From Antedon mediterranea (taxonomy: Eukaryota > Animalia > Echinodermata), in assembly GCF_964355755.1 (NCBI RefSeq), contig NC_092677.1, positions 5,168,101 to 5,232,100 on the forward strand: a DNA stretch of 64,000 nucleotides. The letters run 5' to 3'. The stretch's first letter is position 1; the number at the start of each line of letters is the position of its first letter. Positions 1-23,373 of the stretch are shown here, piece after piece. The translations under genes and the position numbers were made by a program. The notes under the pieces were generated by a model, which worked only from the letters and a program-made list of their open reading frames with translations, ran no database searches and had not been told where the DNA came from.

Positions 1-180
1 AGGGGCCCTATTATTATGCGAAAATGTCCCTTTCGGCGCTTCCCCTCACAAGAAGTGAGGTTTCCATAGAAACCAGTTAACATAAGCTTGACGTTATAAT
101 GCTGCTTTTCAATTAGTGCAAAATAGTAAATTCAAGTGACTAATAATAGGTTAAAACTATGGAACGCCGGGAGTGCCACT

Positions 181-535
181 TTCGGCGACCTTTTAATGCG
201 GCGACTGCTATTTCTTTCGGCGACCTAAGCATTTCGGCGACTTTGGTACTTTAATAGCGGCGACTTTTCCATGCGGCGACTCGGCGACTTTACCATTCAG
301 CTGCAACTTTTTATGCGGCGACTCGGCGACTTTACCATTCACCTGCAACTTTTTATGCGGCGACTCGGCGACTTTACCATTCACCTGCAACTTTTTTATG
401 CGACGACCCGGCGACTTTACCATTCAGCTGCAACTTTTTCATGCGGTGACTCGGCGACTTTAACATTAATTTTTATGTGGCGACTTTGTTTCGGTTGAAT
501 AACTTTGTCGGCGACTTCTTTATTTGGCGACTTAA
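181..535 (+). repeat. Subterminal tandem array (~42-bp unit ATGCGGCGACTCGGCGACTTTACCATTCASCTGCAACTTTT, ~4.5 copies, plus scattered CGGCGACT cores)
   Basis: Directly visible; explains the repetitive ORFs 208..423 and 271..498. Confidence 0.9.
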
Positions 536-759
536 GGATTAGGCAGCTTTGTTGTATGCCGACTAATTGCGCAACGATAACAGCTTAACCTTGGAAGGTC
601 ACGAGACATTTTGCAACGTCTGGAATGAAAAGGCTAACCAACTTATCAGGATCAAATTACCTCTCTTATCTGTTGTTGCATGTAGCGCATGCCAGAGTGT
701 TGATTCATTTAGTATTTTATTATTATTCATGTGTACATCTTTATGAAAGCACCTTCAAA

Positions 760-3700
760 ATGAAAACTAATTTAGGACATCTTCATGTCAATTTTGAAAG
801 AGAAAATGTAAGGATTTTTGTTTGTTTTTTATTTAGTAGAATAAGCTGGCCTCTATAGCCACCTATATCTCTACTAGGCTAGACCATGGAGTAAAGAATT
901 CTTTACTCCATGGCTAGACCTAGCTAGATAGGGAGGCCCTATAATATTAATAGGCCTAAGCCTAGTAGGCCCCTATAACTTGTAAGGTGTAGGCCCGGCT
1001 AGACTCACATTGTCACAATAATTGAGAAATTTAGTAGTAGTTAATAGTAGTTTTATCCAAATAAATACATCATTAATATCATTACTGGTGCCATGATTCA
1101 TGAAGGAAAGTTCCTCCATGTCCATGGTGGTAAAAACTATGTATTGTAGGCCTACAAAACAGAAAAGGTCCAGCTTTCTAGGTCTGATAACTGATTAATT
1201 AATGGGTAAAACAGACCAATGTAATAATAAATTTGTTTGCCTATTTAATATGAAACCTACACTCAATAAACAATCTTTTTTCATCAAATCAAAGCAAAAA
1301 TGTTTATTTAAATCATTTGGAGAAGCTAATTTTTTAATTAGCCCTCATTAGTTTGCTTATTGCATGGTGCATGCAAGTATTTGCCATTGATCAATTTATA
1401 AAAGAGGTACTTTATTCTCTTGTCATTGTCCTTTGTCTGCCATTTTTAAAAAACTTTATTACATTTCTATGTTTATATATTTTATAATTATGTTTTTGAT
1501 AGAAAATAAATATATATTTTGATTTGATATTTCAAATATTGTTTGAATTTGGGTAAGATAAACATTTTTTTTTAAATAAAAATTATTTAGATTGATACTG
1601 CAAACATTGGTTCACTAACCAACTCTGAACTTGACATGCTGGGTGTAGTGTCGATAGGAGATAAGCACAGACTTCGTAACAAATTCAGATTAAATGGTAT
1701 GTTTTTACTGTTTCAATTAATTGCTAGCATACAGTACAGATAATAAATACTGCAACATTGGGACGCGTAGACTACGTTTCGTACGCGTGGCAACTTCGTA
1801 GGTTTCGCGTGGCGTAATCTACGCAAGCTAACATGCTACGCGTAGTCTACGCGTAGCCTACGAAGCGAGAGCTAGGAGGGGAAATCCCAATGTTCAGATT
1901 ATTGTGTACTGTGCTGCATGCACCACACACGGAATTAGTTAACGAATTTGAATACTAGTTTTCATCAAATTTAAAATGCGAGTTAATTACTGTGAAGTAA
2001 TAATAAATGTATTAATATTAGTATTAATTACTGTGTGTTGTGTTAAAATGGGACATTTATTTTTATGAAAGAAGAACAAGTGTACATCTATCACCGACCG
2101 GCCAACGTACGGACGGCGGTCGTCGTCTGTTTAAATTGTGTGAAATGGCCTCCGACTAGGCCTAGCTAGCTAGCTAAAAAGGAGGGTTACCGGCGTACCT
2201 ACCGACAGTTTAATTTTAAAATATGTGGTACGCCTATAGTACTTATAGGCCTACTTAGTAGTAGTACTGTATGATAATCCATACTGTGTACATCGTCAAA
2301 TACGATGTACATGGCGTGAAAATGTGAAATAATGTGGTATAGCCTAGGTGACAGAAGGATATTTCCTCGATACGACAGTTTTCGCCGTGAAGCTGCTGTT
2401 TACCCACGTGTGTGTATCGCGCAGTACTACTCTACTGTCTGAACTATGTTTGTTTACTAGGCTATATAATGAACAATGTTTCGTTTTAAAATTGCGTTTA
2501 AATGAAATATTACGCTTATTTAGTACTATGGGATAATATGGATTGTTTAAATACTGTAAATGTCAAAATAATAGAATACAAATACGATATTATTTTTGTT
2601 CCAACGGAAATCGAGACGGATCACTCCATTCGTAATTCATTCGCCCAGTGTGTTTATATATCCACGTGTATTTTGGCTTTATTTCTGTTATATATTTGAA
2701 GTAAATGAACAAAATTAAATACCACATACAATATAATTTTTTTAACATTATTATATACTAGATCTGATAGGCAAGAGTCTTTGACCATAGGAGGACCTTT
2801 AACATCAGCATCAACGTCAGCATCTTTCAGGTATATTTGTCTTATTTTTCAAGGCATAAATCAACTTTTTTATTTTTGGTGAAAAAATTATCAACTATAT
2901 AGGGCATTGTCTCTAATGCTTACAACAAATATATTTTTTCAGCTCAATTTCTTATAAATACTGTAGTTACTGTAATTTTAACAGTTCTTTCCTATTTTTG
3001 TGTGTAAGCAAAGACTTTACTGGATAATCTGTATGGTTCTTATTTGTGTTATATTATTTTTTTCAGCCAGTATTGCTCTATTTTAGAGGAGTCAATTTAT
3101 CTGTCTTCTGACTCTGCAGAAGATGATTATGATGATGAAGACATTTCAGTAGCAATCATGCGCAGCTTGATGGATGAGAAGTAATTTTTATTTTTATTTT
3201 CTGTATGTGTTTTTGTAAGTTTCCAGCAGTGTTAAATCACCGAATGGGTACAGTATTATGCTTTTTCACGATCATGATCATTCTACATTTACTATTTTCT
3301 ACTCTAACTTTTGCACTGTTTAACAATATAAACATGTCCAATTATTATTATTATTGAAATTGTAAATTAAAAAAAATATTTTAATACATCTGCAGTTCCA
3401 CTCTGCAGTTCCACTAAAGATTTTTTCTGTTTTCCAGACCTACTACATTGACTACTGCAGAGTTGTTTAACTCGTTGAATACAGCAAAATCAGACAGCAC
3501 AACAATTAGTATTTTCAACATCTGCAGGACTAGAATTTGGGATGGAGCAGTAAGAGGCCTGAAACGGAAAACATTTGATCCAGCCAACCGGATTTCCGTC
3601 AAATTCACAGATTCAATTGGGCAGACAGAAGGTGCAATTGATGTTAATGGCCCTCGAAGAGAGTTTTTTTCATTAGTTCTTGACCACATTAAAAACAGCA

Positions 3701-6268
3701 ATCTTTTTGAAGGACCACCTACCCAAAGAGTATTGGCAATGAATGGCACAGGTAAGATACTAGTATTGTTTTGTGTTGTAAAAAAAATAGCAAATTCAAA
3801 CTGAAAAAAGCTTGCATACACAAAACCCTGCCCCTTAACACTAATGTGAATTCTCTGTAAATAAATACTGGCATGATGGGAAAGATTGTAAGTGTAAAGT
3901 AATGGCTGTATCATTGATTATAGTAAAGTAGGACTAATTACTGTTTTACTAGTACAACCATCCAATATGTTTTATGTATGAGACAGGTCCTTGCTGTGTG
4001 TTTAATGGTAAACGGTAAAGCTTCGTATCCATCTTTACACATATTATACCAGACTTCCGACCACCATGTAATTAACATTACATAAAAAACATACCTGGGG
4101 CAAAATAATAGTAAGTTGATATATATATTTGTTTTTTTCCAGCTATGGCCAATGACAATTACTTTTATGCTGGACAATTGATTGCTATGTCTCTTGTACA
4201 TGGCGGTCCATCACCAACGTTTTTTTCCAACACTCTGTACGAGGCCATAGCCTATGGATACAACCGTTCAACTGCTGGACTTGATGATGTTGGCGACTTA
4301 GAAATACAGTCAAAATTGATGAAGGTAAACATTTATTATTGTAAAACATTACTTGCATAAACTATCATAAAATTAAATTGTTTGTTTATTTTATTTGTTT
4401 ACTACACACATTGTATGCAAATAATATATAGTAAGAACACTACAAAGTTTTGGATGAGAGTTTGGTGTATTGGTTATGTATCCAGCCTCTCACAGTTGAG
4501 ATCGCTGGTTAAGTTTTTTTTTCGTTTTTTTTTGTGGACCTTGATCTTTGACCCTGACCTTTCAAAATGTAACCACAATTATATAGAAGATACAAATCTT
4601 TCTTTATTCTGGATATTCATTCAATATTTGTACATTGTTCTTCCTTGAAGTCCAGTTAACACTTACAAATTACAAATATAAACAATAAAAATGGAAAATT
4701 ATGAAAACGTTTTTAAAGACTACAATATCACAAGAAGCAAGAGAAAAATACAGTTAGATCAAATTTTTAAACGATTGCAAAGTTAATGAATTTATAGAGC
4801 TGCAAATATCTGGTGAAAGATTATTCCAGAGTTTGACTGAGTTTGTTGAGAATCGGATAAAAACTGTGGTCTCTAGGCTGTTCACAGACACACACCAACA
4901 TACAGGGGTGAAAATATAACCATCTTGGCGGAGGTCAAATATAGCTATTAACCATCTTTGTGTAATCAAAGAATGCTCTCTTTTCTGTTATTATTCAACA
5001 TTCTTATTTATAGAATTTATTTAATATCCAATATGCCACTGAGCATTTTAGATTTTCCAAAGTTCAAATGTACTTAATGTTCAATTCCAGTTTGATTCAT
5101 GCTTAATGTTTTTATTTCTGTCTAGATTCAGTCATCCACTTCTGTTGAGTCACTACAATCAGCTGTGGATGAGGCTGAAGATTTTTTGAGTTTAGCGGGT
5201 GTGTTAACACACATAGACTCGCTAGATAAAAAAAAACAAAATTGTGTCCAATGCTGTAAGATTCTATGTCCTTGACAGGACACGATCAGCCTTTGAAAGG
5301 TTTGTAAATTTGTAAGAAATTGGTATATGTTAGATGTTATTGAGAATCGTTATGCAAAGGTCAAAACAATCTGTAGACAAAATGGAACAATTTATGTGAT
5401 CATGAAATAGACCATGCATTTCAATTTCAACATCATCAAAATGAAGGTTAACGATATATATAATTTCAATTCAAATGGGCAAAAATTAAAATAACTGTAA
5501 AATCTGAAATATTGTGTCTACTTGAAAGGTCAAGCTCAGCATCCCGTTATTAGATTTCCTTGGCCTGACTTTCCTTAATTCATTCATTTTAAAATTATAC
5601 GCAAATTCTTATTTATCCTTTTTTTGTAGAATGCTTTCCGGGCTTGAGACACTTTGTGTCCTGCAAATTGTCAGAGAAAATCCTGTAGCATGCAGGAAAT
5701 GCTTCCTACATATTGAAGTTCCTGCAATAACAGCAGAAACGCTGAGAGACGTCTTTTTTGTTGCTTATAGCGAGAGAGGAAGCAACAAAAGAGCAAAGGA
5801 AGAGGTAACTGCCGCTTTCTGGTATGATTACCTGCTTGACATTGAAGGTACAGTGTGAACAATTTTTAAATTGAGCGTATGTATGTAATGCAATTAGTGT
5901 ATTAATTGAACTACAGTATTATGTTATTGTCTATTGTATCTTTTATTTAAAAATACTTTGGTTGCATGGGCTTTTCTTAACATAATGAAAATTGTCCAAC
6001 TACACCTGTTTCATTTTTTTTTTCAGAGGGAACAGTCCAATCTACTCTAGCTGATGTATTGGCTTTTTCCAGCGGAACCACCAGCATCCCAATAACGACC
6101 TTTTCAGAATTGCCCACAATAAACTTTTCGCACAGCGATGAAAAATTCCCAACAGCAAACACATGCAGTGTGGTGCTTAGACTTCCAACTAGCCACTCCG
6201 ACTACATCAAATTTAAAGAAGCTATGGATTTTGGTATCCTAAATTCGCAGTCTTTCGGCACAGCATAG
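760..6268 (+). CDS. SAM-UIM-HECT E3 ubiquitin ligase (G2E3-like HECT), spliced; one frameshift, so possibly a pseudogene
   Basis: Exons 760-807, 1591-1696 (NLGHLHVNFEREN/IDTANIGSLTNSELDMLGVVSIGDKHRLR, SAM-like), 2762-2830, 3067-3180 (DDEDISVAIMRSLMDE, UIM-like), 3438-3751 (EGAIDVNGPRREFF), 4143-4324 (YFYAGQLIAMSLVHGGPSP), 5126-5299, 5630-5847, 6027-6268 (FPTANTC with catalytic Cys, terminal SFGTA*). One extra A in the run 5228-5236. Exon 2-to-3 phases mismatch, so an exon is missing or lost. Confidence 0.88.
885..912. mobile_element. 28-bp perfect palindrome CATGG...CCATG with 7-bp TSD (micro-MITE)
   Basis: CATGGAGTAAAGAATTCTTTACTCCATG flanked by GCTAGAC at 878-884 and 913-919. Confidence 0.65.
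1754..1894. repeat. Small inverted-repeat element in HECT intron
   Basis: AACATTGGGA...TCCCAATGTT ends and an internal ACGCGTAGACTACG inverted pair; CpG-rich compared with the AT-rich intron. Confidence 0.45.
4430..4940 (-). mobile_element. Partial Helentron-like (HINE) non-autonomous element, same family as 59657-60226
   Basis: Reverse complement begins ACCTCCGCCAAGATGGTTATATTTTCACCC and shares long blocks with 59657-60110. Confidence 0.7.
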
Positions 6269-7037
6269 TATTTGTATAATTAGATGTAGCTGTAGTTTCT
6301 TTATAGTGTACGCCAAAAATTAAAGTGTGGAGCTCTATTACATCACCTACATCCCCTCTAAAAAATTTGTGCAAATCTTTGTTTTACTATTTCACATTTG
6401 TTTAAATAGTTCTTAGTTGCAATACATAGGTACCTTTCATTTTAAATTTCTATACCTAATGTTTGTTGTTGTTGTTCAAAATTTGAAATTGGTACAAGCT
6501 CCTTGTTTCAATTTGTTTGTATTTTTTTTCATTTTTAGACAAATGTAGATCTACAGTAGTATCTTTTATGTTGCTAAGTAGAGTGTAGCTTCCCCCATAT
6601 GGATTTATTGCTGTCTTTTCCAAATCAAAATACTGTGTAACATATTGCATCAATATTTAATACTTTTTTACCATACATTTTTCCATTTATTACAAAGTTG
6701 TTGTTGTATTATATGTACAGTTTATAAATTAGTCTAGTCTCTGTACAACTATGCATCATATTTTCTTTGCAATAAAAACTTTTTACTAATATTTGTTGAA
6801 ACTTATTTACAAACTTTCTAGTTAAGGTAATTACATAATACGTTATTCAATCAACAATACTTTCATTCCTGAATTTTGTATCTTTTAAGAGAAGCATAAA
6901 CAGGGATAGCAAAATAGAAAGGAAGTTGAGGGGCACTGGCTATTGATGAGTTATTTCTAAAATATTTTTATTCACTAACTTTATTCACAAATTTTGTATG
7001 TCAGGGATACTGTACTACAGTATTTAAAAAAAACGAT

Positions 7038-8934
7038 TTATTCATCAATAACATTATTACTGATGTACTGTAAGACATCACAATACACGTCTACACCATG
7101 CTGAGAGCTAGGTCTTAATGGGCTGATTTCTTCTTGTAGCTGATGATACACTTCATCCATCAGTAGATTTCGTGGCTCTTCAACTACTACATGCCCTCTT
7201 GCTCTTTCATCTAATTCCAGATCCGCTGCAACATGCTACCAAACAAAGAAATAATAAAAATCCATTATTTACCAAAATTTATTTATTTGGACCTTTTATT
7301 AATTTAGAAGAATTTCGAGGTTAATAATAAAGGGCAAAATGAGCTTTAGGATGTTTCGCCTCCAATTACATTTTCATCCAAAATAAAAATAAAATGTTGT
7401 CAATTACCTCTTGCAAAACATCATCAAAGCCAGTGTACTGTTCAACCTGCCCATCAACCCACAATTGCAAAGGAGTCTTTCTATTTTCCGTTCTTATTTT
7501 ATGGTTGATCCAACCATTAAACCAATCTTGAAGTGATCTATTAATTCTCGGAGTGAATACATATTGTAATGCAAACAATTGGATCTCATCTAATGTATCC
7601 AAATCCCCAGAGTTTTCCAAGTGGGAAAATAACTGATAAAAATACTGTTAACATCCTTGGAAAACGTCTCCCCAAAGTCTTTCTATTCTCTGGTTGTGGG
7701 TGCTCTTCCCAACTATTAGACCTGGTTCACCTGTAAAATGCACATTGCCAAGTTGTTGTAATATATTCAATTTTACTACAATATACAGTGTTAACAAAAA
7801 ATACCATAAACAATCAAGCATTCAAAATGTATAATTGCAAAAAAAAAAACCAAAACCGGAACTATAATGCTTCATTCCTATATTTACCTCTTTTTTGTGT
7901 TATGTACTGCCAAACTTTAACATTTTCTCCTCCAGCATCTGATCGGACACGTAATGGAAGCCCGTACATTTCAACTGCTTCTTGGAATGCTGTAAGCACA
8001 GTTGATGATCGATTGTTTGTAGAACATTTTAGGTATACTGGAAGACGACTATAACCATCAACGCCACCATGAACAACAAATCCCCATCTTAAAAAAAAAA
8101 ACCAAATTTGAAAATTCATAATACCCCTTTTACACAATTTTATTGGATTTTAGATTTAATATAAAAGAAAATGCAAATAATAAATTCTGAATAAATTTCA
8201 ATAGGGCTACCGTTTTACAAAATTACAATTAATTTATTTAAGCCTCTTTTGGTCAATAATGTGGCATGTAATTACTATTTTTCTTTTGAATTATTCTGTT
8301 ATATTATGTTTCAAATTATATCAAATTAAATAAAACTCTTTTGGTTTGAATTGAAACGCCTTTCTTAGTCTATCTAATCATCTTGTTTAAACCAAACAAA
8401 CCTTATTAATTTGTGGTTGCCATCAATATGCCAAAGGTGCTTAGGTCCTTCTACAGAGTAGACACGTCTGTGTAAACGTCTCCTCCTCCTAAAATCTGCC
8501 CCTCCACCATCAATCTGTCTTAATGATTTTCTCAGATCTTTTCTTGGTACAGTTATGTGTCTATGTTTTAAATAACCTTTCATCATGACTTCTCCAGTAT
8601 TTGGGTGACTCATTAATATAGAATGAACATTATCATCTAGTGTAGCTTCATCAATGTCACTATACATTCGAGAAGAAATGCCCAAACTTTGTAATCTTCT
8701 AAACACAGTTCGGCGGCTTACAGACAAATGAATTGCAATTGAGTTGACATTGTACCCAGAGTCAAGTAACCTTTTAATAATTTGATTGTCTGAATCACTA
8801 TCCTGTTGCAGATTTTCCTCCATTTCCATTACTCTTTGACATTCTTCTTTTAACTCTGAACATTGTTCTTCATCTTCAATTCCAAGTTGATGGAATTCCG
8901 CATCAGACAGTTCAGTAACTATTTCGATAGTAAT
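7038..8934 (-). pseudogene. Integrase-core (DDE) transposase, IS3EU-like, with N-terminal SAM-like segment and HTH; one premature stop; first exon not located
   Basis: Exons 8934-8402 (ITIEIVTELSDAEFHQLGIED; IAIHLSVSRRTVFRRL HTH; WHIDGNHKLI), 8087-7888 ([19 protein letters not shown]), 7730-7408 (GKSTHNQRIERLW) and 7235-7038 are all phase-compatible. In-frame TAA at 7650-7648. Confidence 0.88.
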
Positions 8935-11710
8935 CTACATAAATTCAGTAAATTGATTATTACCTAAATTAAAGTTGTCATGAAAAACTAGAAATGTATT
9001 AATATTAGCAATACTACAGGGCATTTAATAATTATTTTTCTATTTATAATGTTGTTTGTGGGTCATACTAATCTACACCAGTAGGACTTTTATGGTATAA
9101 AAAAACACATCAACTACATGTTTTTAACATGGTCAAAGGTAAATTTAATTTATATTTATTTATTACTATTGCTCTTAACCCCCGAAGCAAATCAGCCTCT
9201 ACAAATTCCCATTTTCCTCACAATAAACATAACAATTAACATTATTATTATTATTACTTGTATAGTGCACATTACTGCCATGTATTTAAGTACACAACAC
9301 AAACAGTTTAATTTAAAGAGATCAGATCCTAGGCCTAGTACACTATATAGTAGAGAGGGCCTAACTAAGGCTAGAGTACTAGGCCTCGCCTAGTAGGATG
9401 AGGGGCCTACTAGCCTAGGTTTACAGCCGAAACGGCCGCCAACTGAAACGGCCGCCAATTGAAACGCAATTAAATGTATGAAACGCCGCGTGTGCCGTTT
9501 GTCATACAAAACGACGTGTGGTTTAATACAATTGTTTTACTTTTTTTCAGATTGAAATGACTTTAGACGTATGTGACTTAATAAATATTAACAGATAGGC
9601 CTAGACGTTTTTTAATTATTTATGTATTATTATGTTTATCGTATAATAATGAATATTGTGTAAACATAATTGAGTTTTTTATATATTTTTTAAATGTAGG
9701 CCTATACAGTAAAAGTGTAAGGAAAAGAATTGGAATTGGACAAAATAAATGATAAATAATTACTATTATTATATTAAAATCTAAATTCTTCCTAGTACTA
9801 ATACTGTAGTAAACCTATATAGTTAAGTTCAATAAATGTTTAAATATCCTTATTATTAAATTTTATTCTTTTTTTAAGAATTAGTTTTTTAAGATACATT
9901 ACTTTTTTGTATTTACCGGTAACACTATTTCAAACAATTGTAGCGGTTTCGTTGCGGAAAATCATCATGTTCGCAATTAAATCATATAACATATAATTAA
10001 TAACAATTACGTTAGATAAGAAGACAACTTAGGGCGTTGACATCACAAACTCAACACAATCGATTCAACGCAACAATAGCGACTTTATTTACAAACAATA
10101 CACACACAGACACTAGCAAATGCTAAACAATACGCAACACGATTTTATTCAAAATACAAACGATGACATTTTATTCAGATTATTGTTATTTTAAATTGTT
10201 TACAATTAATGGTGGTCAAGGCTTTAATATTAAAAACAGATCATTATTTTTATTTCACATTACATTAAATATTATATTACAATTAGTAACCTTTATTAAC
10301 AACTGATTTATTTATGTATTATGAATCAAAACGAACTTTATAATTAATTTATTTCATATATGTACAATAAAATAGATTTCAATAATCATTAATAATAATA
10401 ATAAAATAATCAGATTGCTTAAATAAGTTAGTTTGCATACAGTAGATAGTAATTATAGAGAATTGATTTACACTTTATTTTTCAAAATATCTTAAATCAA
10501 ATATGTTTGTACATTAGCAAAGTTAATTAAATATTACACTATTTGTATTAGTGAAGTCTTGATTTGTATTCTAAGGATTACGTGCGTTTCGGCTGATGAC
10601 ACGGCTTGATGCTAACAGCAACGATCTTGCAGTTCGTGCACCTCTTACGTACTCGTCCCAGTATCCGTTCAATCGTTGTGTTGCAATGACGGCATGTCGC
10701 GACTGTCTTCGGATCTCATCCTCTCTAAAAATGAGCTCTGCATTGATGGCGACCATCTCACTCTCCTCGTGAAGAAGCTTACACAGCAAGTAGAAGTGAA
10801 GGTTCGCTGTAAAAGAGAACAAAACAATGTTAAATAACAAACTATACTAAAAACAAATGATGTTCAAAGAACAGAAAAAAAACTAACTTACCTCGCTTAG
10901 CTCTGTGATTGAGGCGTTGGTGGTAACCTTCCAAATCGTTGTTGGTGCGAATTTGCTGTCGGAATATCACCCAATCCATTGGACTGTAGATGTCACCATT
11001 AATCCAGTAGTCGTCCATGTAAGTCAGAAGTTCCTGGAGTTGAGGCGATTGCCCGGCGTTGCGTCGCATCCGTCTGAAGACAGCCTCCACATGTTCCACT
11101 GGTAGCGTCGGGAGAGCCATAAGTTGTCTGATGAAAAGTCGTGTTGCTGCTTGTTGGCGGTACGCTCTCTGCAGACCGACATCCTGCACCTTCCGAAAGA
11201 TTGCCTGTAAGAGAGAAAAATTAAATTGTTAGTTAAGAAAATTAAACGAAAAACGCCGAACAACGCATTTGTTGTACAAATAAAATCAATAAATAAAAGA
11301 CATCACATACCTGTGTGTAATGAAAAAGACATCCAGCAATTTCAACATTTGGTAGTACTTGGCGAATAGACTGCCATATGGATGCCTCATAGTCTGCCAC
11401 CACTTTCACCACGTTGTTTTCCGGCAACATCCGCATAACAGAGCGCAACACGGCCGTGTAGTCCACACTCCTCTTGCCTGACATCACAGCAAATAGTAGC
11501 GGTACTTGCTTCAACGATGTCCCCGTCCTGATAAAGCTGTGAATACTGAAGAGCTGGTAAAATGGATCTCTTATCAGCTTAAACGTACCGTCCAAGTACC
11601 TGTAAAGATAGTTTTAAAAATGTTATAAAACAAGTATGTACATTGTAATTTAAACAAAATGAAAGTGTACAGGGAAAAATTCTTACCACACTCTTGCTCT
11701 TCCCAGTATG

Positions 11711-13720
11711 AGGCCTAACAAAAAAAGCTCATTTACAATATATTAGGAAATTAAGTGTCGCCTGTGTAAATGGTGACTCCAAACGTTTTTTTAGTTATGT
11801 TAAGACAAGGCGTAAGACTGGACAAGTCAAAAACTTTGTTTTTAATGGTATACCCTTGGTTTCCGATATCGATGCGGTAAATGCATTTTCCACATTCTTT
11901 GCGTCAAACTTTAACGAACCTAATCGTAATTTCAATGTTAACCATGAGATCTGTAATTGTGTTCACCCAGATATTGTTCCCCTTAATAACATTAATATTA
12001 CTGAAAAAACTATTTTCGAGGCTCTATTGTCATTGAAACCCAACAAATCCCCTGGACCAGACGGGATTACACCTAAAATGTTATCCATGTCAGCTCCAAT
12101 TATTGCCCCAGTGTTGTGCAAAATGTTTAACAAGTTCTTAACGGATGGCTTTGTACCAAAAGATTGGAAACTCGCGAATGTCACTCCTATTTTTAAGTCA
12201 GGTAATCGTAACGATGTTAATAATTATCGACCCATATCGCTATGTTCTATTATAGGTAAGGTTTTTGAACGTATTATAGCAGATAACATTCTTTTTCATC
12301 TTCAATTTTTTGGATTTATAAGTCCCACGCAACACGGGTTTTATCCAGGTAGATCGTGTGTTACACAGGCCTCAGCGTTATATCATGATTGGTCACAAAC
12401 AATGGATGTTAGACAACCTCCTGTAATTGATGCAATATTCCTTGATTGGGAGAAGGCCTTTGACCGTGTTCCCCATGATTTAGTAATCAAGAAACTGCAC
12501 AACATGGGAGTATGTGGACCTCTCCTAAAGTGTCTTCACTCCTTTCTCAGTGACAGATTCCAACGTGTTGTTCTTAATAAGGAGCATTCTGATTGGGATA
12601 GAGTGGGCTCGGGTGTTCCTCAGGGATCAGTGTTAGGCCCGCTTCTATTTAATCTCTTTGTTTATGACCTACCTCTAAATACCTCTTCTGTTATGAAGCA
12701 GTATGCAGATGACACAGTAATTTATAAACCTGTATTCAGTCGTCATGATGCACTTACCTTACAACAGGATCTTTGTAAAATTTCCAAATGGTGTGAGGAT
12801 AATAAAATGAAATTAAATGCAAAGAAGTGTAAAGTCATGCACATAACTAGGAAACGTAATTATATCCCTCATTTTATTTATACAATCGAATCCAATCCCC
12901 TTGAAGCTGTTAATTCACATAAATATCTTGGTATTAACTTCTCACGTGATTTAACATGGTCTGCTCACGTTAATGATGTATCGATGAAATCAATGAGAAT
13001 GCTTGGGTTTATCAAACGGTTTGTAGGTTTCAATGACACCGAAATTTTACTACGACTTTTTAATGCACTATGTCGACCTGTTATTGAATATGGTGCTCCT
13101 GTGTGGGATCCACATCAAAAACAACATAATATAGCTATTAACAAGTCATTAAGACGGGTTACTAAATTGTGTGTTGAAGGCGATTTCACTGACAGGCTTA
13201 AGATACTAAATTTACCAGATATGGTTCAAAGAATGAAATTTCATAGTATAATTTTTGTAGTTAAGTGTTTGCATAATTTAATTGATTTTGATATATTTGA
13301 ATACCTTACAATTAATTCTCGGTATCCAGAGTCGCTCACCTTTAAACACATGTATGCTAGAACTAATGCATTTAAATACTCCCTGTTTGTTAATTTTCCT
13401 CGAATATGGGAATGTATCCCGCATGAAGTTCGTAACAAAGTCCTGTTTAACTTTGGGGGGTTTAGAAGGGATTTGAAAAAATGTATTACTGATATCGAAT
13501 TCATCTAGACTATCACTGTGTTTTTATGTCTTTTGCGTTTTTCGTACTATTAGTTGGGAAAGCCACTCGACAGTGCAGTTCTTTTGAACTGATCCACTTT
13601 TGGTTACCCGCAGGTGCTGATAGTACTTTGTTCTGTTTTGTTGAATGATGCCGTGCCTTGTTTATGATTTGTGTATGTTACCTGGAAATTGAATAAAATA
13701 AAATAAAATAAAATAAAAAA
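11711..13720 (+). mobile_element. 5'-truncated CR1-group (CR1/L2/Crack-like) LINE
   Basis: (AAATA)n 3' tail at 13692-13720; ATG duplicated at 11708-11710 and 13721-13723. Removing it restores the MULE frame ...AMMDILGRARVW. Confidence 0.92.
11712..13508 (+). CDS. LINE ORF2 reverse transcriptase (uninterrupted, endonuclease domain missing)
   Basis: KSPGPDGI, YRPISL, QHGF, LDWEKAFD, GVPQGSVLGP, YADD and KYLG motifs; the frame is open back to the insertion point. Confidence 0.93.
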   Translation, partial: GLTKKAHLQYIRKLSVACVNGDSKRFFSYVKTRRKTGQVKNFVFNGIPLVSDIDAVNAFSTFFASNFNEPNRNFNVNHEICNCVHPDIVPLNNINITEKTIFEALLSLKPNKSPGPDGITPKMLSMSAPIIAPVLCKMFNKFLTDGFVPKDWKLANVTPIFKSGNRNDVNNYRPISLCSIIGKVFERIIADNILFHLQFFGFISPTQHGFYPGRSCVTQASALYHDWSQTMDVRQPPVIDAIFLDWEKAFDRVPHDLVIKKLHNMGVCGPLLKCLHSFLSDRFQRVVLNKEHSDWDRVGSGVPQGSVLGPLLFNLFVYDLPLNTSSVMKQYADDTVIYKPVFSRHDALTLQQDLCKISKWCEDNKMKLNAKKCKVMHITRKRNYIPHFIYTIESNPLEAVNSHKYLGINFSRDLTWSAHVNDVSMKSMRMLGFIKRFVGFNDTEILLRLFNALCRPVIEYGAPVWDPHQKQHNIAINKSLRRVTKLCVEGDFTDRLKILNLPDMVQRMKFHSIIFVVKCLHNLIDFDIFEYLTINSRYPESLTFKHMYARTNAFKYSLFVNFPRIWECIPHEVRNKVLFNFGGFRRDLKKCITDIEFI

Positions 13721-15450
13721 ATGTCCATCATAGCATCAGTTGCAAATAAAACATGCCGTCCACCATCAATGACCACATCGTCTCGAAGAAAGCCTGGTGC
13801 TATGTTGGTTTTGGAGTTCGAATTGCAAGTTGGACGGATGCCTTGGTCTGGACAACTTTCGTCGTAGGTTGGCTTGTCTTGCGAGGCTGGAAGGTTTAGG
13901 CAGAGTAGGATGAAGAGCAATTTGACCAACACCGATGTCATCACGCATTATGGTGTCCACGATTTCAGCTGCTGAGTCGAAAGGTCGTTCCAGAGCTGTA
14001 GCTTTTATCTTACGACGGATCACGGCCACCTTACCACGTCCTGTAGAGTAAAGATGAAAGGGAAAAAGAAATACACACATTATTAATCAGTAATTCACGA
14101 TCATTTTGAGTTAAAGCGCATGATTTGCAAACATGTTTTTTTAGTTTTATATTGATCGAAACGTCGAGAAACTCAACAGTTTTCGAGAAACTCAACAGTT
14201 TTCGGAACAGATATACGTGGTGTACTTTATCAAAAATTTGATTTTGCCATGCATAATATATTGCTGAATAAAAAAAAAATGTGGATGTGAGATGATAAAA
14301 ACTATAAATGCACGTACCTGGCATCATCCCGCATATGTGCTCGTGGAGTCCTCTAGTATATACCCCATCTCTTTCTAAAACCGTTGCTTTACAGGTTAAG
14401 GCAGGAGTCCTACGGTAGCACCGCCAAGTTGTGTTCGCCCGCCTCCGATCAACCTTCTTTGTATATTGGTATCCTAGGCTATCTATCAAAGTTGCCTGTT
14501 AAATAAAAATGTCATATGATAATAAATCAAACGCAAAGAAAAGTTAGGCAAATCATGTTTCAACAGTTGGAACTTGCTTCAGAAGATCAACAAATAAAGT
14601 TTAAAATATTAATTTATAATTGGACCTGCCTCACTTCTTCCGGAGATTGCTTTATATTATTACATAAGAATAACATGTATAAGCACTGAAACAAATACTA
14701 TCTAATACGGTATAATTATTTAAAATAACAATAAGAATGTAAATTAAATCAATTCCTTTTATATCCTAGACGGATCTACTTTTTTTTCCGAAATAAAAGA
14801 TGAATGAATGAATAACAAAAATAAATTCTGAACTATGAAAAGAGCTATATAAAATACACCCTTACCTTTCCTTTCGCCGATGTGCCTTCCTCCACTACGT
14901 ACTGGATTTCGTCACCCTCGTCGTCATTTCCTGCCACAGGATTCGGCTGTGGATAAGGATTCTCCATCTCGACTTCCTGATGTACTTCTGGCTCAACAAA
15001 CTGTCCCAGGTCGGCGGCAAACACATCGATTTCATCTGGCATCGGTTGATCATTTTCAGAACATTGTCGGCAACTCCATTCAATATAACCATTCTCCACT
15101 CCTCTTAAATACTCTGCTCGCGTCACTCCACTATCACACTCGCGATGTTGCCATCTATCACACTCCTCACATAGCAGTCCTTCTTGATTCTCGATAACAG
15201 GTTGTTGGCATTCAATACAAGCGTTCATGTTGATAATTTGATAAAAAGTAATGTTCAATTGGAAAAAACTCCATTTTAAAGGAAAACGCAAGCACCAAAA
15301 AGTGCGTGGCATTTCTGTGCAAATAATAGATTATTGTCTTTATGTAATGTTAGATGACGCCGATACGCGGAGCTCCACAGATAATGTGACTAGGCGCGGT
15401 TAATGCGCTAACATCTAACATAAATTCAAAACAATTAGCCCCGCGAAGGT

Positions 15451-16450
15451 GTTGTTGATACACATAATAGTAAAACAATAGGACACAACTTCATTTAAAG
15501 TGCTTTATTTGCACGTTAGAATGTTTGAATATTATTCCACAATTTCATATGTTATTGAATTTAATATAGACCTAATAAGTAACAATATAAATAGCTTTAC
15601 TACATAACATATATTAATATTATTACAGTACGTTTGTATTTGTTTTGCCTATTTCAACTTCAATAATTGATACAGTATTTGTTTGAATACGTTAAATAAA
15701 TTTATATTGCGCTTAGAATGGTGAATTATTATAATAAACATTATTTTTATAAAAACTTAACTAAAAAATACGTTTATTCTTTGATTTTATTCTTAAACAT
15801 ATTGGTTGGTTTCATTTATTTTTTTTCTCCATCATGGTTTCATAGGCTTTACTGTACGTTTATAATACTGCATTGGCTTGTTGTAGCTGCGGCGGTATTG
15901 GCGTCCCATAGAAAATGTTGGCGGCCGTTTCAGTCGGCGGCCGTTTCGGTGTTGTTGATACACATAATAGTAAAACAATAGGACACAACTTCATTTAAAG
16001 TGCTTTATTTGCACGTTAGAATGTTTGAATATTATTCCACAATTTCATATGTTATTGAATTTAATATAGACCTAATAAGTAACAATATAAATAGCTTTAC
16101 TACATAACATATATTAATATTATTACAGTACGTTTGTATTTGTTTTGCCTATTTCAACTTCAATAATTGATACAGTATTTGTTTGAATACGTTAAATAAA
16201 TTTATATTGCGCTTAGAATGGTGAATTATTATAATAAACATTATTTTTATAAAAACTTAACTAAAAAATACGTTTATTCTTTGATTTTATTCTTAAACAT
16301 ATTGGTTGGTTTCATTTATTTTTTTTCTCCATCATGGTTTCATAGGCTTTACTGTACGTTTATAATACTGCATTGGCTTGTTGTAGCTGCGGCGGTATTG
16401 GCGTCCCATAGAAAATGTTGGCGGCCGTTTCAGTCGGCGGCCGTTTCGGT
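15451..16450 (+). repeat. Exact-looking 500-bp tandem duplication of the MULE subterminal region including most of the TIR
   Basis: 15451-15950 and 15951-16450 read identically; GGT microhomology at the junction. Confidence 0.92.
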
Positions 16451-17104
16451 CACACACCCTAGTTAGTAGGCCTACTACCGGGATCGGAGTACAGTACTAC
16501 TATTCTAGGCCTAGTTTGCTTTCAGGGTTTGTTTATATATATATTTAAGTCATATTTATTAAGTATTTGAGAAAACTCATTAAAAAAAACAAGGTAGAAA
16601 AGACCCAACAATATCTTTCAAAACACGATCGTTGCTGGTGGCCGAATGACGTACTTTCTGTACGCACCACGTTGTAGAGTTCATCCATTGAGTACACACA
16701 GTAATTGCTAGGCCAAATAATAACATAAAGGTTTTACCATTCCCCGTCGGGGAGGAAAACATTTATATAGTATTACAACGCCAGTATTGACATGCATGTA
16801 TTTAGCGCGGTAACTAATGTACACCCCTGTTACGGACTGGACCATTAATCGCTCCACGAAACCACGTTGGAGCGATTCTCCTCCGCACACAGCCAGAGCG
16901 AGAGAGAAGCGAGGTCGAATAAATACAAGTTTTTACCATTTCCCGTCCAGGGGAAATCAGTTCTCTTATAATTACAGCCCCGATACCGTGCGCATATGTT
17001 TACGTTGATATTATTTAATTGCACACCTCATTTTGGACTGTACCATTTTCGGAACCTTGTTTTGTTTTCATTATAAACATGGGCTGATGTCAGACAAATA
17101 TCTG

Positions 17105-17261
17105 CGCCAGTAAGGCAAAAGGCACACCACAATAAAGACGACCGGATACGTAAGACTCAAGTAGAATAAGATCTTTATTCGTCAAAACCAAATATCACAA
17201 CAATAACATAACAACCAGCGGCCATGATATATATACCTAGATAGGGGGCGCTAGACTGGCG
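17105..17261 (-). repeat. 3' LTR (CGCCAGT...ACTGGCG)
   Basis: Direct repeat of 22402-22558. Confidence 0.95.
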
Positions 17262-17381
17262 TAATCATTTTTTTTTTCTCTTCTCATAAAACACAAAAGT
17301 CAAAAACAAAACAAAGCAAGCAAAAGCACTCAAAATCTAAATTGAATGGTCGAAACTTAACTATATAATACGAATGAAACA

Positions 17382-20300
17382 TTATAAATCAAGAACGTAG
17401 TCAGCGAGATGTCTAGGAAATCTGCGTGAACGTGTGGATGTGCGATGAGACAACTGTGCTGGAACTTCCATTGGTGATTCTTCCGGGGTCTGTATGGATG
17501 ATGACTTGTCGTTCACCTCATCAGGAGAGGCAGAAAGAGTTGACGGTACCTCGGGTGGAGGAAATAGAGACGGATCAACTGTGAAATCAGGTTCTTCATC
17601 AGAGGTGTCGCAGTGGCGTTGTGAGGTTGGTGTGGGAGAATGATGAACGTCAGTCGGTACAGTAAAACACTCTGATTTCTTTACACGATAAGTAGCGCTT
17701 CTCAATTGTGAGTGCGTAAACTTTCGGACGTTGCACCACTTTCCATCTACAGAAACAACGAGATAGCGATCTCGTGCACAGGTCTTGCGACGATCTGTCC
17801 ACAGGTAGACTAAATCACCAACCGTAATAGAAACGTCAGGTGCTGCACACGCGACGGATGCCTTAGACTTTTCGCTGTGCGCGTGATTAGAGGCTCTGAG
17901 GTGCTGTTGGCTGATAATCAACTTGCGGTCAGAAATAGGGATTTGGTCATGAGTGAACTGATCTCGCTGTGTCCACATTTCGCGAGACGACAATCCTCGT
18001 GTTCGGATACGGGAGTTAAGACGAGATGTGGCGACAGCAAGCACCGTCGGTGAGATGGGACCACCACCAGGCTCTTGCCGAAGTAACTCTTCTGACAATT
18101 CGCGTACAGCTTTCTCTCCAACCGGGTTTTTGTTGATGTTCTTAACTCTGCCAATTTCGATCGAAATCCTATGTTTCAGTAAGACGGGATCGTGGACGAG
18201 TGCCATGAAGCCCGGGGCAGGGTCTGTGCGGATGGTTGCTGAGGGGCCCTCCACGGGGCACATGCCAATGCATAAGCGAATCAAGGTATCGCGGCGGAGA
18301 GTATCGTGCTTCTCATCGCTGATTAAACACGAAAGGGTGTAAGACGTCACCGTCTCTCTGACAACAAGAATAAGTTGACGCTCGCGTTTTAGGACATCGG
18401 CGGCAAAGGTGACTCCGAGCTTCGACGGAGGATCATCAGTGGACTGCTCAATTGCAGTGGTGGGTACAGTACGGATCGAGCCACAGTGATGACACGATTC
18501 TGACACCTGTTCGATGGTTTTGTCCAAGTCAAGCGCAAAGAAGTGGCGGCGAACGGATAACTTAAGTTGGTGACTAGTTGGGTGATCTAGCCGGACGTGA
18601 AGTGATGTCAGCAGTCCGTTTAATACGGGGCGAGGGACAATAATACATTCATGCTTAAGTGAGAGTGGTTCAGTGCGGTTGACTACAAGGAGACCATCTC
18701 TTCCAATGGAACAACAGTTAAGGTACCGTTTAATGTCCCTGACATTGGTTAACTTTTTAGATGGGCGCGTTCCTTGAATAAGATGAGCTTTTACACGCCG
18801 AAGGTCAAGACACTCGGATTGGATGGCTAGCCGAGCTGGCCGACTGGTGAACGGGAGTTTGGCGTCTCCAGTAATGAAATCACGTATCGATGAACGTAGT
18901 ACCGTTGACTCTATCGCGCCGTTGACAAATGAGCAAACCTGACAGTTGTCAACTGAGCATGGTGGAGCATTGCGACTAGCAAAGTCGGATGGGACGTTGG
19001 CTGAGCCTGCCAGGTGCCGAATAGAAATCTGGTACCTGCTAGCGGTGGACAGGAAGGTGGACACACGGGGACTGACTGAGAATTCTCCCCTGCATAGCTT
19101 TTCAAGCGCTTGGACGCATGGCTTACTGTCAGTTAGGACACATGTGTTATGTCGAGACTGGATAATAAAAGGACTAAAATGTTTAACGGCTGCCGCGATA
19201 GCCAAAGCTTCGATCTCGCAGGGTAGCCATGTGACCTGACGCGCACGGAGTTTGGCACTAAAAAAGCCGGCTAACTGTGGTTTGGATTCACGAGTAACGT
19301 ATAAGGTTGCGCCTAGACCATGACTTTTAACAGCACCATCCGTAACGATCCACAGTTGGTCATCGGGATGAGGTAAAACTATGACCTTGTTTGAGTCAAG
19401 TGCGTTCTGTGCTACTTTAAATGCTTCATGTAAGGCATCGTACCAATGTATTGTTTCTTTGGACTGTAAGCCGGCTATGGCTTCTTCCAGTAAAGCGATG
19501 AGAGATGCGCACTGAGGTAAAACGCGTGCTAACACCTTATATGCCCCGATAAAGGAGCGTAAACCTTTTACCGTCGGTGGTGGAGTGCATGCCTTTAACG
19601 TTGAAATACGATGAGTATTTGCGCGAATAGAACCTAGGGACCAGGTCCACCCAAGAATGGTTGTAGTTTGTGGACAAATCACCGTTTTGCTAGCAGACAA
19701 TCGCAGACCACACTTGTAAATGCATTGGAGTAGACGCCGCCAATTGTAAATTAACTCCTCTAAACTGTCCCCTCCACAATAAAGGTCATCCGCAAGCTTT
19801 GCTACTACTCCCTCCTTAATCAAATCCCCCAGTACCCGACAAGTCAGCTCTTCGAGGGCGGTCTCTGAACCAGGCATACCCATGGCACACCGGGCATAAA
19901 CTCTCACACCTCGAAATGGTGTGGCAACGCCGCAGTACTTCATAGAAGCGCGAGACAAAGGAATCTGGTAAAAGGCCTTTGTGAGGTCAGTAGTGATTAT
20001 GTGCTTCCATTTTGCGATGTTACGTAGAACGGAGTTGACATCCGGCATAAGGGAGGGTTGGGGTTTTGCATATCGTCCGACCTCGGCGAATGCTGTAACC
20101 AGACGGTAACCACCACTCTCTTTTTTGACAAGGAAAGATGGGTTAAGATATTCGACTTGGACACCGACGTCCTCGGGGCGAACAAATACTCCCACTTCCT
20201 CAAGCTCATCAAATTTGTCCTGTAGCTCAACCAGTTTATCTCTGGAGTACTGAGGAACTCGACCTTTCCTCTGAGGAGGCTGTACAGGTCCCATGTTAAC

Positions 20301-21269
20301 AACAGCCTGGAATGGGCCAACAGAGCCGTTGTAGGCTTTAATCATAGGATCGAAAACAACATCGTATTCAGTAAGAATGGATTGGAATTGGGATTTCACA
20401 TTCTGTGGGAGGATATGGTCTGGATCTAGCTTGACATAATCAGAAAACGCGACAGAGGAAGGAGGCTTACAGGGCTTAGATGGCGACTTTTGGGGAATAG
20501 CATTTTCGGCCGACAATGGCACAAAGGTGGGTCGGACTTGGCAAAAATGTTCGTGTCGTTTGATGACCTGAGGTGTGTCGGTGGAGTTTGGGATACGTAC
20601 CCTTCCCGCAACACTAGAGACCAAGTCAAACTTTGGCCAGGTTCGAGGAAACGTACCCTTACTATGTGGTTCGAGAGCAAACACGTCATCTTGTTGGATG
20701 AAGTCAGACGGAATGGCTACCTCGATAAATTCTCCCGGCCATATAGTGGTCTCCTTTTCAGGAGCACGAAGCACACAAGCACGTCGAACCGTGTTATGGT
20801 GAAGGCCCTGTACCTGGGAACCATAGATGTACGTGGTACCGTCACCCAATTTGATTTCCCGCTTCGCAGGTCGGAGGGCGATATCATTTAGCTCCATAAA
20901 AGGAGTTCCGGCAAGAATGTCGACGTCAAGTTTTTCGACAACGAGACCCTCAAATTTGAATTCCCTGTCGTCCCTTGTGAGAATAATTGTGGTTTCGCCT
21001 ACGACCGAAAGTGGGGAAGATCCGTCAGCCTGATGGGCAGACTGAGAGCTACTTTTAATGGTGGCGCCAAGGGCAGTGGCAGCAGTAAAGGCAATCATGT
21101 TTCCTGTAGCCCCACTGTCTAGTGTGATTCTGGCTGTGTGGTGTTGGTGAAATGTGTCAAGGTATGGGGACTGGCGAACTTGGACTCGTAAAGCTGTCGA
21201 CGGTGCACTATTATCACCAGGTTCATCCGAGGTGTTATCATCATCGATGATGCCAACGATTTGTCGGGC
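17382..21269 (-). CDS. pol: Gypsy pol polyprotein (protease, RT, RNase H, integrase)
   Basis: The frame is open upstream of the listed ATG and includes the LDSGA protease motif. Also [32 protein letters not shown] (RNase H), H..H..C..C, and the ADV/RTDP/EKAV integrase triad. Confidence 0.93.
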
Positions 21270-22203
21270 TTAAGGCCATGTATTTCCTGTCTGACTCGGG
21301 CAAATGAGGGCATTCACTGAGGAAATGCTTGTCGTCCGATCGGCCGCTCTGTTTACAGATAGGACAGGACTTGTGTTGGGAAAACTGTGGTCGGGAGAAT
21401 GACTGCCGAGCATTGGAATTTCGGCGTGAATCAGTAGAGCGGGGTGTGAAAGCTGAAGGAGAGCGAAATGTGGATGACCGAAAAACACGCGCATCATCCG
21501 CAGTTCGTAACTCTTCTAAGAGAGAGTCTAAAGCTTGAGAAATCTCCGGTTTCACTGACGCTAGAGTTCGAGTGCGGAGCTCAGTGCCATACCTTTGCTT
21601 AACCAACTTAGGAAGGCCTTTGTGGATGAGAGAGAGCCAAGTAAGAACTACCAAATTTTCCAACGAGGGTGAAAGTTCTTCGTCCTCCTGTATTTGGGCG
21701 TCATGGTGGGAAATGCCCCCGTCTTGACGTAGTAAATTATCATGGACGAAAGCAACTAAGCGCTGATAGAGATCTTCCGGCCTTTCATTATCTTGTAAAA
21801 GTATATCAGCAAAATCAATAAAATGGGCGCCGGTTGACTGGAATCCATAATGCAGTCGGATAGTTTGCCAAATTTGTGAAAGTGAGGAGGAGCTTTTAAC
21901 AATGGTATTCCGGGAAATTATAGGGCAAAAATTAGCGATCTGACCGAGCATGAGTTCAAGGATAGTGAGTTTTTGTTGGGCGGTATGACGACGTGCAACA
22001 GGTACCTCCTCATTGTCGTCAGTTAAGCCGCGAAGGGGGGATGCCCTGGTTTTGGGACGCCAAACAGAACCATCTAGGAGAAATGGGGCAAAATTTGCAT
22101 CAAGTGAGAGTGTGTAGATAAGGTTTTGCTTCCAGTTTTCGAATGTATTTATAGTTTCGTTCTTGGTTAAGCACCATTGCTTGGGTGCTCTAGTACCGGC
22201 CAT
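21241..22203 (-). CDS. gag: Gypsy gag-like protein
   Basis: [10 protein letters not shown] start just downstream of the PBS; C-terminal CPICK...HFLSEC zinc-knuckle-like motif. Confidence 0.85.
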
Positions 22204-22401
22204 GGTAAGAAATATATACAGAAGTCTAGGTGTTGTCAGTTGCACGTGTGAAGCAACAGCCGATCGGCGCCTGTGAAAGCGTAGAGTATGTGATGATATG
22301 CTAGCTCGATTTGTTGGGCTAGGCCTACTAGATTAGGTAGGCTACTCACCAGTACTAGTCGAATAATGGTGGGTGGGCTCGTAATCGTATAGCTGCCACC
22401 A

Positions 22402-22558
22402 CGCCAGTAAGGCAAAAGGCACACCACAATAAAGACGACCGGACACGTAAGACTCAAGAAGAATAAGATCTTTATTCGTCAAAACCAAATATCACAACAA
22501 TAACATAACAACCAGCGGCCATGATATATATACCTAGATAGGGGGCGCTAGACTGGCG
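22402..22558 (-). repeat. 5' LTR
   Basis: Direct repeat of 17105-17261, followed on the minus strand by the PBS. Confidence 0.95.
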
Positions 22559-23373
22559 CTGCTTTAAACGTCAATTTAGCAACTTATTAAGTCGTTTCAT
22601 AAGCAGAGAATGTATAAAGCAAGTATACAATGCAGACATGTTAGATAGAAATATACTAAAAGACATGTAATAAACGTGTTAGAAGAACGTAATAATTGTA
22701 CTTTCTACACCGAGCGGCGGAAAACCCATTCACAGTCACAGTTATTTGAGCGAATACTGTACTTGGCCTAAAACACTAGCGCTGTATTTTAATTTAAATA
22801 TTTGGCTTACGGTTACGAAAATACAAGGAAACATCATTTTATAATTTTACTATTAATATTATTAGGCTATTTATTGACCTATTAAAGATCGCTAAATATG
22901 TTTTTTTTTGTGGGGGCTTAGGTACAGTAGCTCTCTATTCTAGCCTCCCTGTTGTACACTTCTCACTGTACGCCTCACATTATATAAAATAATACGACGT
23001 GAACTCTAAACAAAACCCCGATGAAAAACAATTTACATGAATTCTATAAACTTTCTTATTTATTGTTTGCCTAAACAATAGAGAAAAAATAAACTTTGTT
23101 ACATACAGTAACAGGCGGGTTCAGATTACCTAAATATGATGGTAGAGGCCTAAACAATAGAAACAAAACAAACTGATACCCACGTGTGTGTTGTCGCGGG
23201 CGTCGTACCGGGAGTTCCATATTTTACCAGTAAAAAGCTACAAAGTGATGACGTCATGGTCCACACGGCAAATACAGGCACGCGGCAATTACACATATTT
23301 TACACGCGCGACAAACGCGGGTTATGGTACATGATTTGTAGTCAGTACTGTAGTGTGTATTCATCTGTTGCAG

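Follow-up and report, generated by a model that had tools for sequence, protein, structure and literature searches.

The Locus and Its Two Genes

A stretch of 64,000 nucleotides from the echinoderm Antedon mediterranea (assembly GCF_964355755.1, contig NC_092677.1, positions 5,168,101 to 5,232,100 of the forward strand), here called the window, contains near its left edge two protein-coding genes, one for a HECT-type ubiquitin ligase and one for a transposase. The features described below make it very probable that these genes belong to a decayed IS3EU/GingerRoot cut-and-paste DNA transposon and that the ligase is cargo encoded by the element itself. The left end, TATGGAACGCCGGG, lies at positions 158–171 on the plus strand and has an IS3EU-type TAYGG terminus (TATGG). 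It is followed on the same strand, as the initial annotation had noted, by a subterminal array (183–532) of 42–43 bp units built on GGCGAC, which are likely transposase-binding sites. In the portions of the literature available, IS3EU elements are described with TAYGG..CCRTA ends (PMC12730594), with TA..TA ends, usually 6-bp duplications and a common lineage with GingerRoot (PMC10045372), and as encoding two proteins (PMC8232023), which is also the number of protein-coding genes present here. The two spliced genes converge, with the ligase stop at 6268 (plus strand) and the transposase stop at 7038 (minus strand) separated by 769 bp, in agreement with the roughly 770 bp first reported.

Nine exons of the ligase gene were found on the plus strand, from an ATG at 760 to the stop at 6268. 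The first exon (760–807), which the initial annotation had missed, carries the ATG and the first half of a SAM domain and ends in a phase-0 donor, and the second (1591–1696) carries the remaining half and ends in phase 1. These are followed by a linker exon (2762–2830) that is also present in the database model P0009 and by an acidic linker exon (3067–3180) with a UIM-like motif at 3131–3169. The HECT domain begins with an N-lobe exon (3438–3751), continues through three exons (4143–4324, 5126–5299 and 5630–5847), and closes with a C-lobe exon (6027–6268) that contains the catalytic PTANTC motif (6149–6166), a Phe four residues from the end, and the stop codon. This last exon matches the Pfam HECT family PF00632 (E 8.8e-10; score 39 bits, cut-off 23.9), and the catalytic Cys is followed by 34 residues, the HECT criterion being about 35 from the end. 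The description of a HECT ligase with an intact PTANTC is borne out to this extent; a frameshift upstream of the motif, discussed below, had escaped notice. A database model with a 100% match to one ligase exon comes from A. mediterranea itself and is labeled G2E3-like ("G2/M phase-specific E3 ligase-like"), bearing out the suggestion that annotations of this kind can be transposon cargo. No PHD/RING-like zinc fingers were found by Pfam on P0009 or on the ligase exons scanned, which have SAM and UIM-like segments instead. Consequently, judged by its sequence, the ligase would work like a G2E3-like HECT and does not appear to be a G2E3 orthologue. Two further observations concern the introns and linker of this gene: a perfect 29-bp palindrome (885–913) lies in intron 1 within a high-depth repeat, and sequencing run X5 has a 157-bp tandem duplication over the linker exon (2668–2824) that the window does not have.

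Four exons of the transposase gene were found on the minus strand, from an acceptor at 8934 to the stop at 7038, giving 417 codons. The most upstream of these (8402–8934) encodes the second half of a SAM domain, two helix-turn-helix (HTH) regions and the first catalytic Asp (WHIDG); it is followed by exons with the second catalytic Asp (RSDAGGEN; 7888–8087) and the catalytic Glu (HNQRIERLW; 7408–7730), and by the last exon with the stop (7038–7235). The catalytic triad is thus D171, D228 and E261 in the codons found. The protein matches Pfam PF24764 rva_4 (E 3e-25 and 3.6e-21), with rva_4 on four exon pieces, as well as HTH families, and its core is identical at 66 of 105 positions, counted by hand, to the IS3EU-1_CVi_1p protein printed in the available supplement of PMC10045372. 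These features place it among the integrase-like DDE transposases of IS3EU elements. The integrase-core assignment made originally is upheld by the rva_4 and HTH matches; a premature stop in this gene had been missed, and the first exon is not found in 8935–9420, 16455–17125 or 22556–23240, nor by the SAM profile described below across the whole window. A SAM-looking stretch at about 16500–16560 was considered as the first exon and rejected, as it is not among the best 25 profile scores. No splice joints are present among the rows listed for run X10, a guessed RNA run.

Lesions and Boundaries of the Window Copy

The window copy is damaged in both genes. In the assembled sequence, one surplus A in the A-run at 5228–5236 shifts the HECT frame upstream of the catalytic cysteine, which may be real or an assembly error; the homologue from Anneissia reads through at this position, which the database model leaves out. 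In the transposase, an in-frame TAA (7650–7648) falls eleven codons past the catalytic Glu. Run X1 has no other letter at this codon, whereas runs X5 and X8 have a sense codon. The linker exon at 2762–2830 needs phase 2 and the SAM exon before it ends in phase 1, so the SAM exons and the HECT domain do not share a reading frame and a continuous SAM-UIM-HECT frame, as originally proposed, is not shown; the SAM (by profile) and HECT parts of that proposal stand. A search for an extra ligase exon within 1697–2761 gave four candidates, none convincing, and a multicopy repeat (about 1730–2660) occupies the intron between the SAM exons and the remainder of the gene. At least 13 coding differences are present among the 40 of 305 rows listed, 10 protein-changing and 3 silent, a ratio that is weak evidence for change roughly as under neutral decay. 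As assembled, the copy encodes neither a full ligase nor a full transposase, and it is a poor experimental subject. Contig depth in run X1, which is not equal to copy number, is about 16–35 over the coding part versus hundreds to thousands over the nested repeats, so the element looks like a single locus. This single-locus-like depth, together with the transposase stop, points to a dead copy.

One end of the window copy is secure; a right end and a 6-bp target duplication are not established. Matches to the left end number three in the window on either strand, the left end itself counted, versus 0.03 expected. The sole inverted match, at 23208–23221 on the minus strand, agrees with the left end at 12 of 14 bases and is a candidate right end. 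Its flanks (TAAAAC and TTTTAC) agree at 3 of 6 positions, it has no repeat array, and it lies inside multicopy DNA, so that it is rather doubtful as the true right end. These points, with the phase mismatch described above, weigh against the reading of the element proposed here. The remaining match (9477–9490) was rejected as a right end, as it sits on the same strand in the end of a neighboring MULE. The contig of run X5 departs from the window sequence at 9419, and the element may have lost both the first exon of its transposase and its true right end next to the inserted MULE. This MULE (about 9418–16458) is situated upstream of the transposase, as are a Gypsy element (17105–22558) and another multicopy repeat.

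Recurrence of the Ligase–Transposase Pair

The case that the ligase is encoded by the transposon, which the initial annotation had made from this locus, is carried by relatives elsewhere, as the two genes occur together at five further loci (L006, L008, L013, L015 and L016). When metagenome contigs were scanned with the ligase as anchor, 12 loci representing 7 distinct elements were recovered, and in two of these (L006 and L008) a convergent rva_4 transposase is present. A scan of genome contigs with the transposase as anchor yielded nine loci; four distant bacterial matches were set aside, two animal-type contigs of 2–4 kb have no HECT, and a HECT gene is found at 3 of the 3 animal-type loci with 10-kb flanks (L013, L015 and L016, on two contigs). 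The L013 element is complete: both genes lie between the ends CATGGCGCGCCAT..ATGGCGCGCCATA at 1052 and 15226, there is an array at each end, and a perfect 6-bp duplication (CTTTTC) flanks both ends, the left of which reads CATGG. A clear pair of ends with a duplication was found for none of L006, L015, L016 and L004. Linkage of the two genes was expected to be convergent, and this is the case at L006, L008 and L016; at L013 and L015, both on one contig, the genes are divergent, and orientation is therefore not fixed. A point against general pairing is that the other five of the seven ligase-anchored elements show no transposase, each of these contigs ending within about 1.7 kb of the ligase gene on at least one side, and that no transposase is present in the 3.1 kb downstream of the ligase in L004. 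Taken together, these loci support a strong claim, which we hold with high confidence jointly with the identity of the element, that the ligase is transposon-encoded cargo. Searches of viral contigs with the ligase alignment and with P0004 gave no relatives.

Several observations touch on the origin of these contigs and their genes. The contigs of L013, L015, L016, L014 and L017 are filed as bacterial or archaeal metagenome-assembled genomes and contain animal-type DNA with introns, and L013 and L015 carry receptor tyrosine kinase and EGF-repeat genes; the animal-type DNA in these records is likely to be host contamination. At 3516–3818 of L008 there is a transposase fragment that, by eye, belongs to an IS3EU subtype different from that of the window, which suggests that the ligase may be shared across the IS3EU superfamily.

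Relatives of the ligase in fish are multicopy and lie on several chromosomes per genome. The ligase proteins of Metynnis, a characiform, and Archocentrus, a cichlid, are 92% identical over 672 amino acids. The characiform and cichlid orders split more than 200 million years ago, and dispersed copies with this degree of identity across orders are as expected of a mobile gene, suggesting that the fish ligases may have been transferred horizontally. Among 45 database proteins examined, 19 have a detectable C-lobe motif, and all 19 of these have the catalytic cysteine, as do 9 of 9 C-lobes from the loci. It is very unlikely, given these relatives, that the ligase is a host gene carried along as a passenger and doing nothing for the element, or a normal G2E3-like gene of the host that came to lie beside a transposon by chance. 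The available text of PMC6839031 does describe capture of gene fragments by GingerRoot elements, that of PMC3673628 classes the G2E3-like (GL-Metazoa) HECTs as a host family, and the window has a read depth like that of a single locus, all of which are consistent with a passenger. Against this, the same cargo accompanies two different transposase subtypes, is found in two orientations, lies at L013 between ends that have a duplication, and keeps its catalytic cysteine throughout, and the fish copies are dispersed and near-identical across orders.

The recurrence of this pair in unrelated genomes makes it likely that many "G2E3-like" genes belong to transposons. The common multicopy "G2/M phase-specific E3 ligase-like" annotation in fish and invertebrates would thereby pass to a transposon superfamily, a point of importance to work in which these expansions are interpreted as host adaptation. 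For a two-gene superfamily that has been poorly described, the second gene can now be named. In the parts available, IS3EU is described as poorly characterized (PMC8232023, PMC10853768), and a G2E3 match has been listed among unclassified repeats in Cottus (PMC5638112). The window element resembles IS3EU in its rva_4 DDE core, TAYGG end and two genes, and in the 6-bp duplication of its relative L013; it differs in that its second gene is a HECT ligase, unmentioned in the available IS3EU descriptions, in having SAM on both proteins, and in being a broken copy with one secure end. Neither "HECT" nor "ubiquitin" appears in the main text of PMC6839031 or PMC12730594, and the same is true of "hect" in PMC10853768 and of "ligase" in PMC9587614. 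The string "transpos" is absent from the main texts of PMC3673628 and PMC13623101, which treat the G2E3-like genes as host genes. No published description of the IS3EU and HECT pairing was found in the portions of the literature searched, and Repbase or the Kojima 2019 review may state it.

SAM and UIM-like Modules

Both the ligase and the transposase were proposed to begin with SAM-like sequence at equivalent phase-0 acceptors, and this proposal holds. The SAM-like exons of both genes open at phase-0 acceptors, and a SAM profile built from seven SAM-type transposase N-termini and run against 12,429 pieces matches the spliced ligase exons 1 and 2 with E 2.8e-5 and the transposase exon with E 2.6e-4, scores that none of 2000 shuffles reached. 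The Pfam search that was suggested as a check recovered HECT and rva_4; it gave no SAM hit on the window ligase or on the transposase SAM half. A SAM fold for the transposase N-terminus had been set as a test beforehand. Residues 1–57 of the related transposase P0153 form five helices in an alignment-based model (predicted local distance difference test score, pLDDT, 92–96), and 47 of the 50 structural match rows for this region are SAM-containing entries. Foldseek against SAM domains gives a best E of only 0.27, which is weak, with probability 1.0. The match to the tankyrase-1 SAM has a VIA Z of 9.7 and a root-mean-square deviation of 1.8 Å over 57 residues, where a Z below about 13 may reflect a common helical arrangement. 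The model of P0153 supports a predicted SAM fold for the transposase N-terminus, to which the window halves are tied by the profile. This five-helix fold is like that of the SAM domains of tankyrase, BICC1, ANKS3/6 and Shank, differing in that here the domain is attached to a transposase and a transposon-borne ligase. No SAM-bearing transposase subfamily with this domain combination was found in the portions of the literature searched.

By its distribution, SAM is a minority module. The window transposase groups with a SAM-type clade (FastTree split support 0.96; 145 sequences, unrooted), and a SAM-like N-terminus is present in 8 of 157 transposases, a share that is overstated because the query was itself of the SAM type. 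A homologue search with the SAM region returned three transposases only, and 0 of the 45 database ligases scored, many of them partial models, have SAM. The L006 ligase has a two-exon SAM with the same intron phases as the window ligase (33% identical over 48 residues), and its partner transposase has no SAM and carries another helical domain at its start. Elsewhere, the ligase N-terminus carries a zinc ribbon (fish) or a CUE domain (L010; E 8.9e-6), and UBX is found in 38% of one Atlas cluster, so that ubiquitin-binding modules recur among relatives of the ligase. SAM is thus a real but exchangeable interaction module in this lineage and is not required across the family, as indicated by the SAM-less L006 transposase, the zinc ribbon and CUE modules, and the database ligases.

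The ligase was also described as having a UIM-like segment, which is supported here as a pattern match only. The segment DDEDISVAIMRSL at 3131–3169 fits a pattern in which an acidic patch is followed by a hydrophobic-x-x-Ala-hydrophobic-x-x-Ser helix, the pattern having been made after the motif had been seen; 14 of 20,000 shuffles also fit, and the motif has no Pfam hit. The Anneissia protein P0030 starts with the same MRSLMDEKP. A different domain of about 100 residues recurs near the ligase N-terminus in L013 (8624–9370), L016 (15827–16675), L010, L004 and P0022 (residues 88–198). It is in no Pfam family, and the Atlas clusters in which it falls are unnamed. A ubiquitin-like fold, assigned to it by eye, was unconfirmed, with a weak RA-domain hit in L004 only (E 0.034).

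Proposed Function of the Ligase

By its conserved features, the ligase would be active as an E3 and of benefit to the element. In intact elements, it would ubiquitinate the transposase complex of the element itself, and the ubiquitinated complex would then be cleared by the host proteasome. The purpose would be either to remove the product complex after strand transfer or to limit the dose of transposase. Product complexes of MuA need ClpX for their dismantling, and this analogy makes a self-directed ligase plausible. That the transposase complex is the substrate is proposed tentatively, as the best of the available readings at rather less than even odds.

It is also possible, and should be taken seriously, that the ligase acts on host proteins, such as factors for silencing or innate immunity, or the chromatin of the element, and that a swappable N-terminal module picks the target; the SAM would then bind host SAM proteins. 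Support for host targets, which is at the same time evidence against the self-directed mechanism, comes from two described systems: the fish G2E3-like HECT protein NHRE3 degrades the host protein ISG15 (PMC13623101), and fungal IS3EU elements carry alpha-kinase and TET/JBP genes, of which TET/JBP is read as anti-silencing (PMC12730594), both as given in the available parts of these papers. The N-terminal modules are swapped rapidly, a Neuralized and HECT cluster is a structural neighbor of the ligase, and the SAM ligase of L006 adjoins a SAM-less transposase, such that the modules of the partners do not co-vary. This proposal has no named host target, and NHRE3 may lie outside the ligase clade and be unlinked to any transposon. 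Furthermore, the retention of one enzyme class across very different hosts fits a job internal to the element at least equally well.

Comparison with these systems shows both similarity and difference. The fungal elements share TAYGG..CCRTA ends and an accessory modifying enzyme oriented opposite to the transposase, whereas the accessory enzyme in the window is a ubiquitin ligase in an animal host (PMC12730594, available text). G2E3 and GL-Metazoa (PMC3673628) and NHRE3 (PMC13623101) are, in the portions available, likewise divergent HECTs; they are the nearest Atlas structural neighbors of the ligase and share its database label. In contrast to them, the window ligase has no PHD/RING fingers or NHR, has SAM and UIM-like segments, and is transposon-linked. 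The HECT domains of human and mouse G2E3 are described as non-functional in the available text (PMC3673628/PMC13623101), whereas the window ligase keeps its cysteine.

The initial annotation had proposed that the ligase docks on the transposase by SAM–SAM contact. As a general mechanism this is not supported, because SAM is a minority module and because of the unmatched pair at L006. Within the SAM-type lineage, a SAM–SAM heterodimer that brings the ligase to the transpososome is a possible but not favored mechanism, and we consider it unlikely. SAM is present on both window proteins with an intron at the same position, the window transposase falls within the SAM-type clade, and the net charge of the transposase SAM half (−10), against +1 and a basic last helix for the ligase SAM, would suit a head-to-tail pair; the two window proteins may make a SAM contact. 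The transposase SAMs of relatives are not strongly acidic, however, the common intron may stem from exon shuffling from a single source, and in the window copy the SAM exons and the HECT are in different frames, in addition to the scarcity of SAM in both sets of proteins. A complex prediction of the half-SAM exons (38 and 35 residues, half-domains, with the alignment not used) scored 0.01 and is no evidence either way. The full combination of ideas, in which animal IS3EU elements have their own active HECT ligase that docks by SAM–SAM contact in the SAM-type lineage, ubiquitinates the transpososome, and gave rise to the multicopy "G2E3-like" genes and perhaps also to G2E3 and NHRE3 as domesticated host genes, is improbable as a whole. 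The cargo relationship would make testable either the turnover of a eukaryotic transposase complex or the manipulation of host ubiquitin signaling by an element.

Neighboring Sequence in the Window

The MULE-like transposon at 9418–16458 has inverted ends with GGCCGCC motifs, transposase exons, and an open reading frame (ORF) for a PHD-like finger (14845–15330), with no clean duplication at its flanks. A LINE reverse-transcriptase ORF (11712–13508) is nested inside it, and an exact 503-bp tandem duplication (15448–16450), real or an assembly artefact, doubles its right end. The Gypsy-type element at 17105–22558 has long open frames for gag and pol and a pair of 157-bp long terminal repeats (LTRs) with 98.7% identity, and public contigs join across its site. 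This LTR element splits a multicopy repeat (16503–17101 and 22559–23221) that has an internal direct duplication of about 200 bp and ends near an IS3EU-like CCATA; the repeat is possibly a non-autonomous IS3EU relative. Farther along the window, exons of an immunoglobulin (Ig)-domain gene lie on the plus strand (23154–23696 and 60652–60996), duplicated Ig-like exon pairs lie in opposite orientation (43984–46165 and 53254–55202), and a tandem array of units of about 84 bp occupies 39320–39989.

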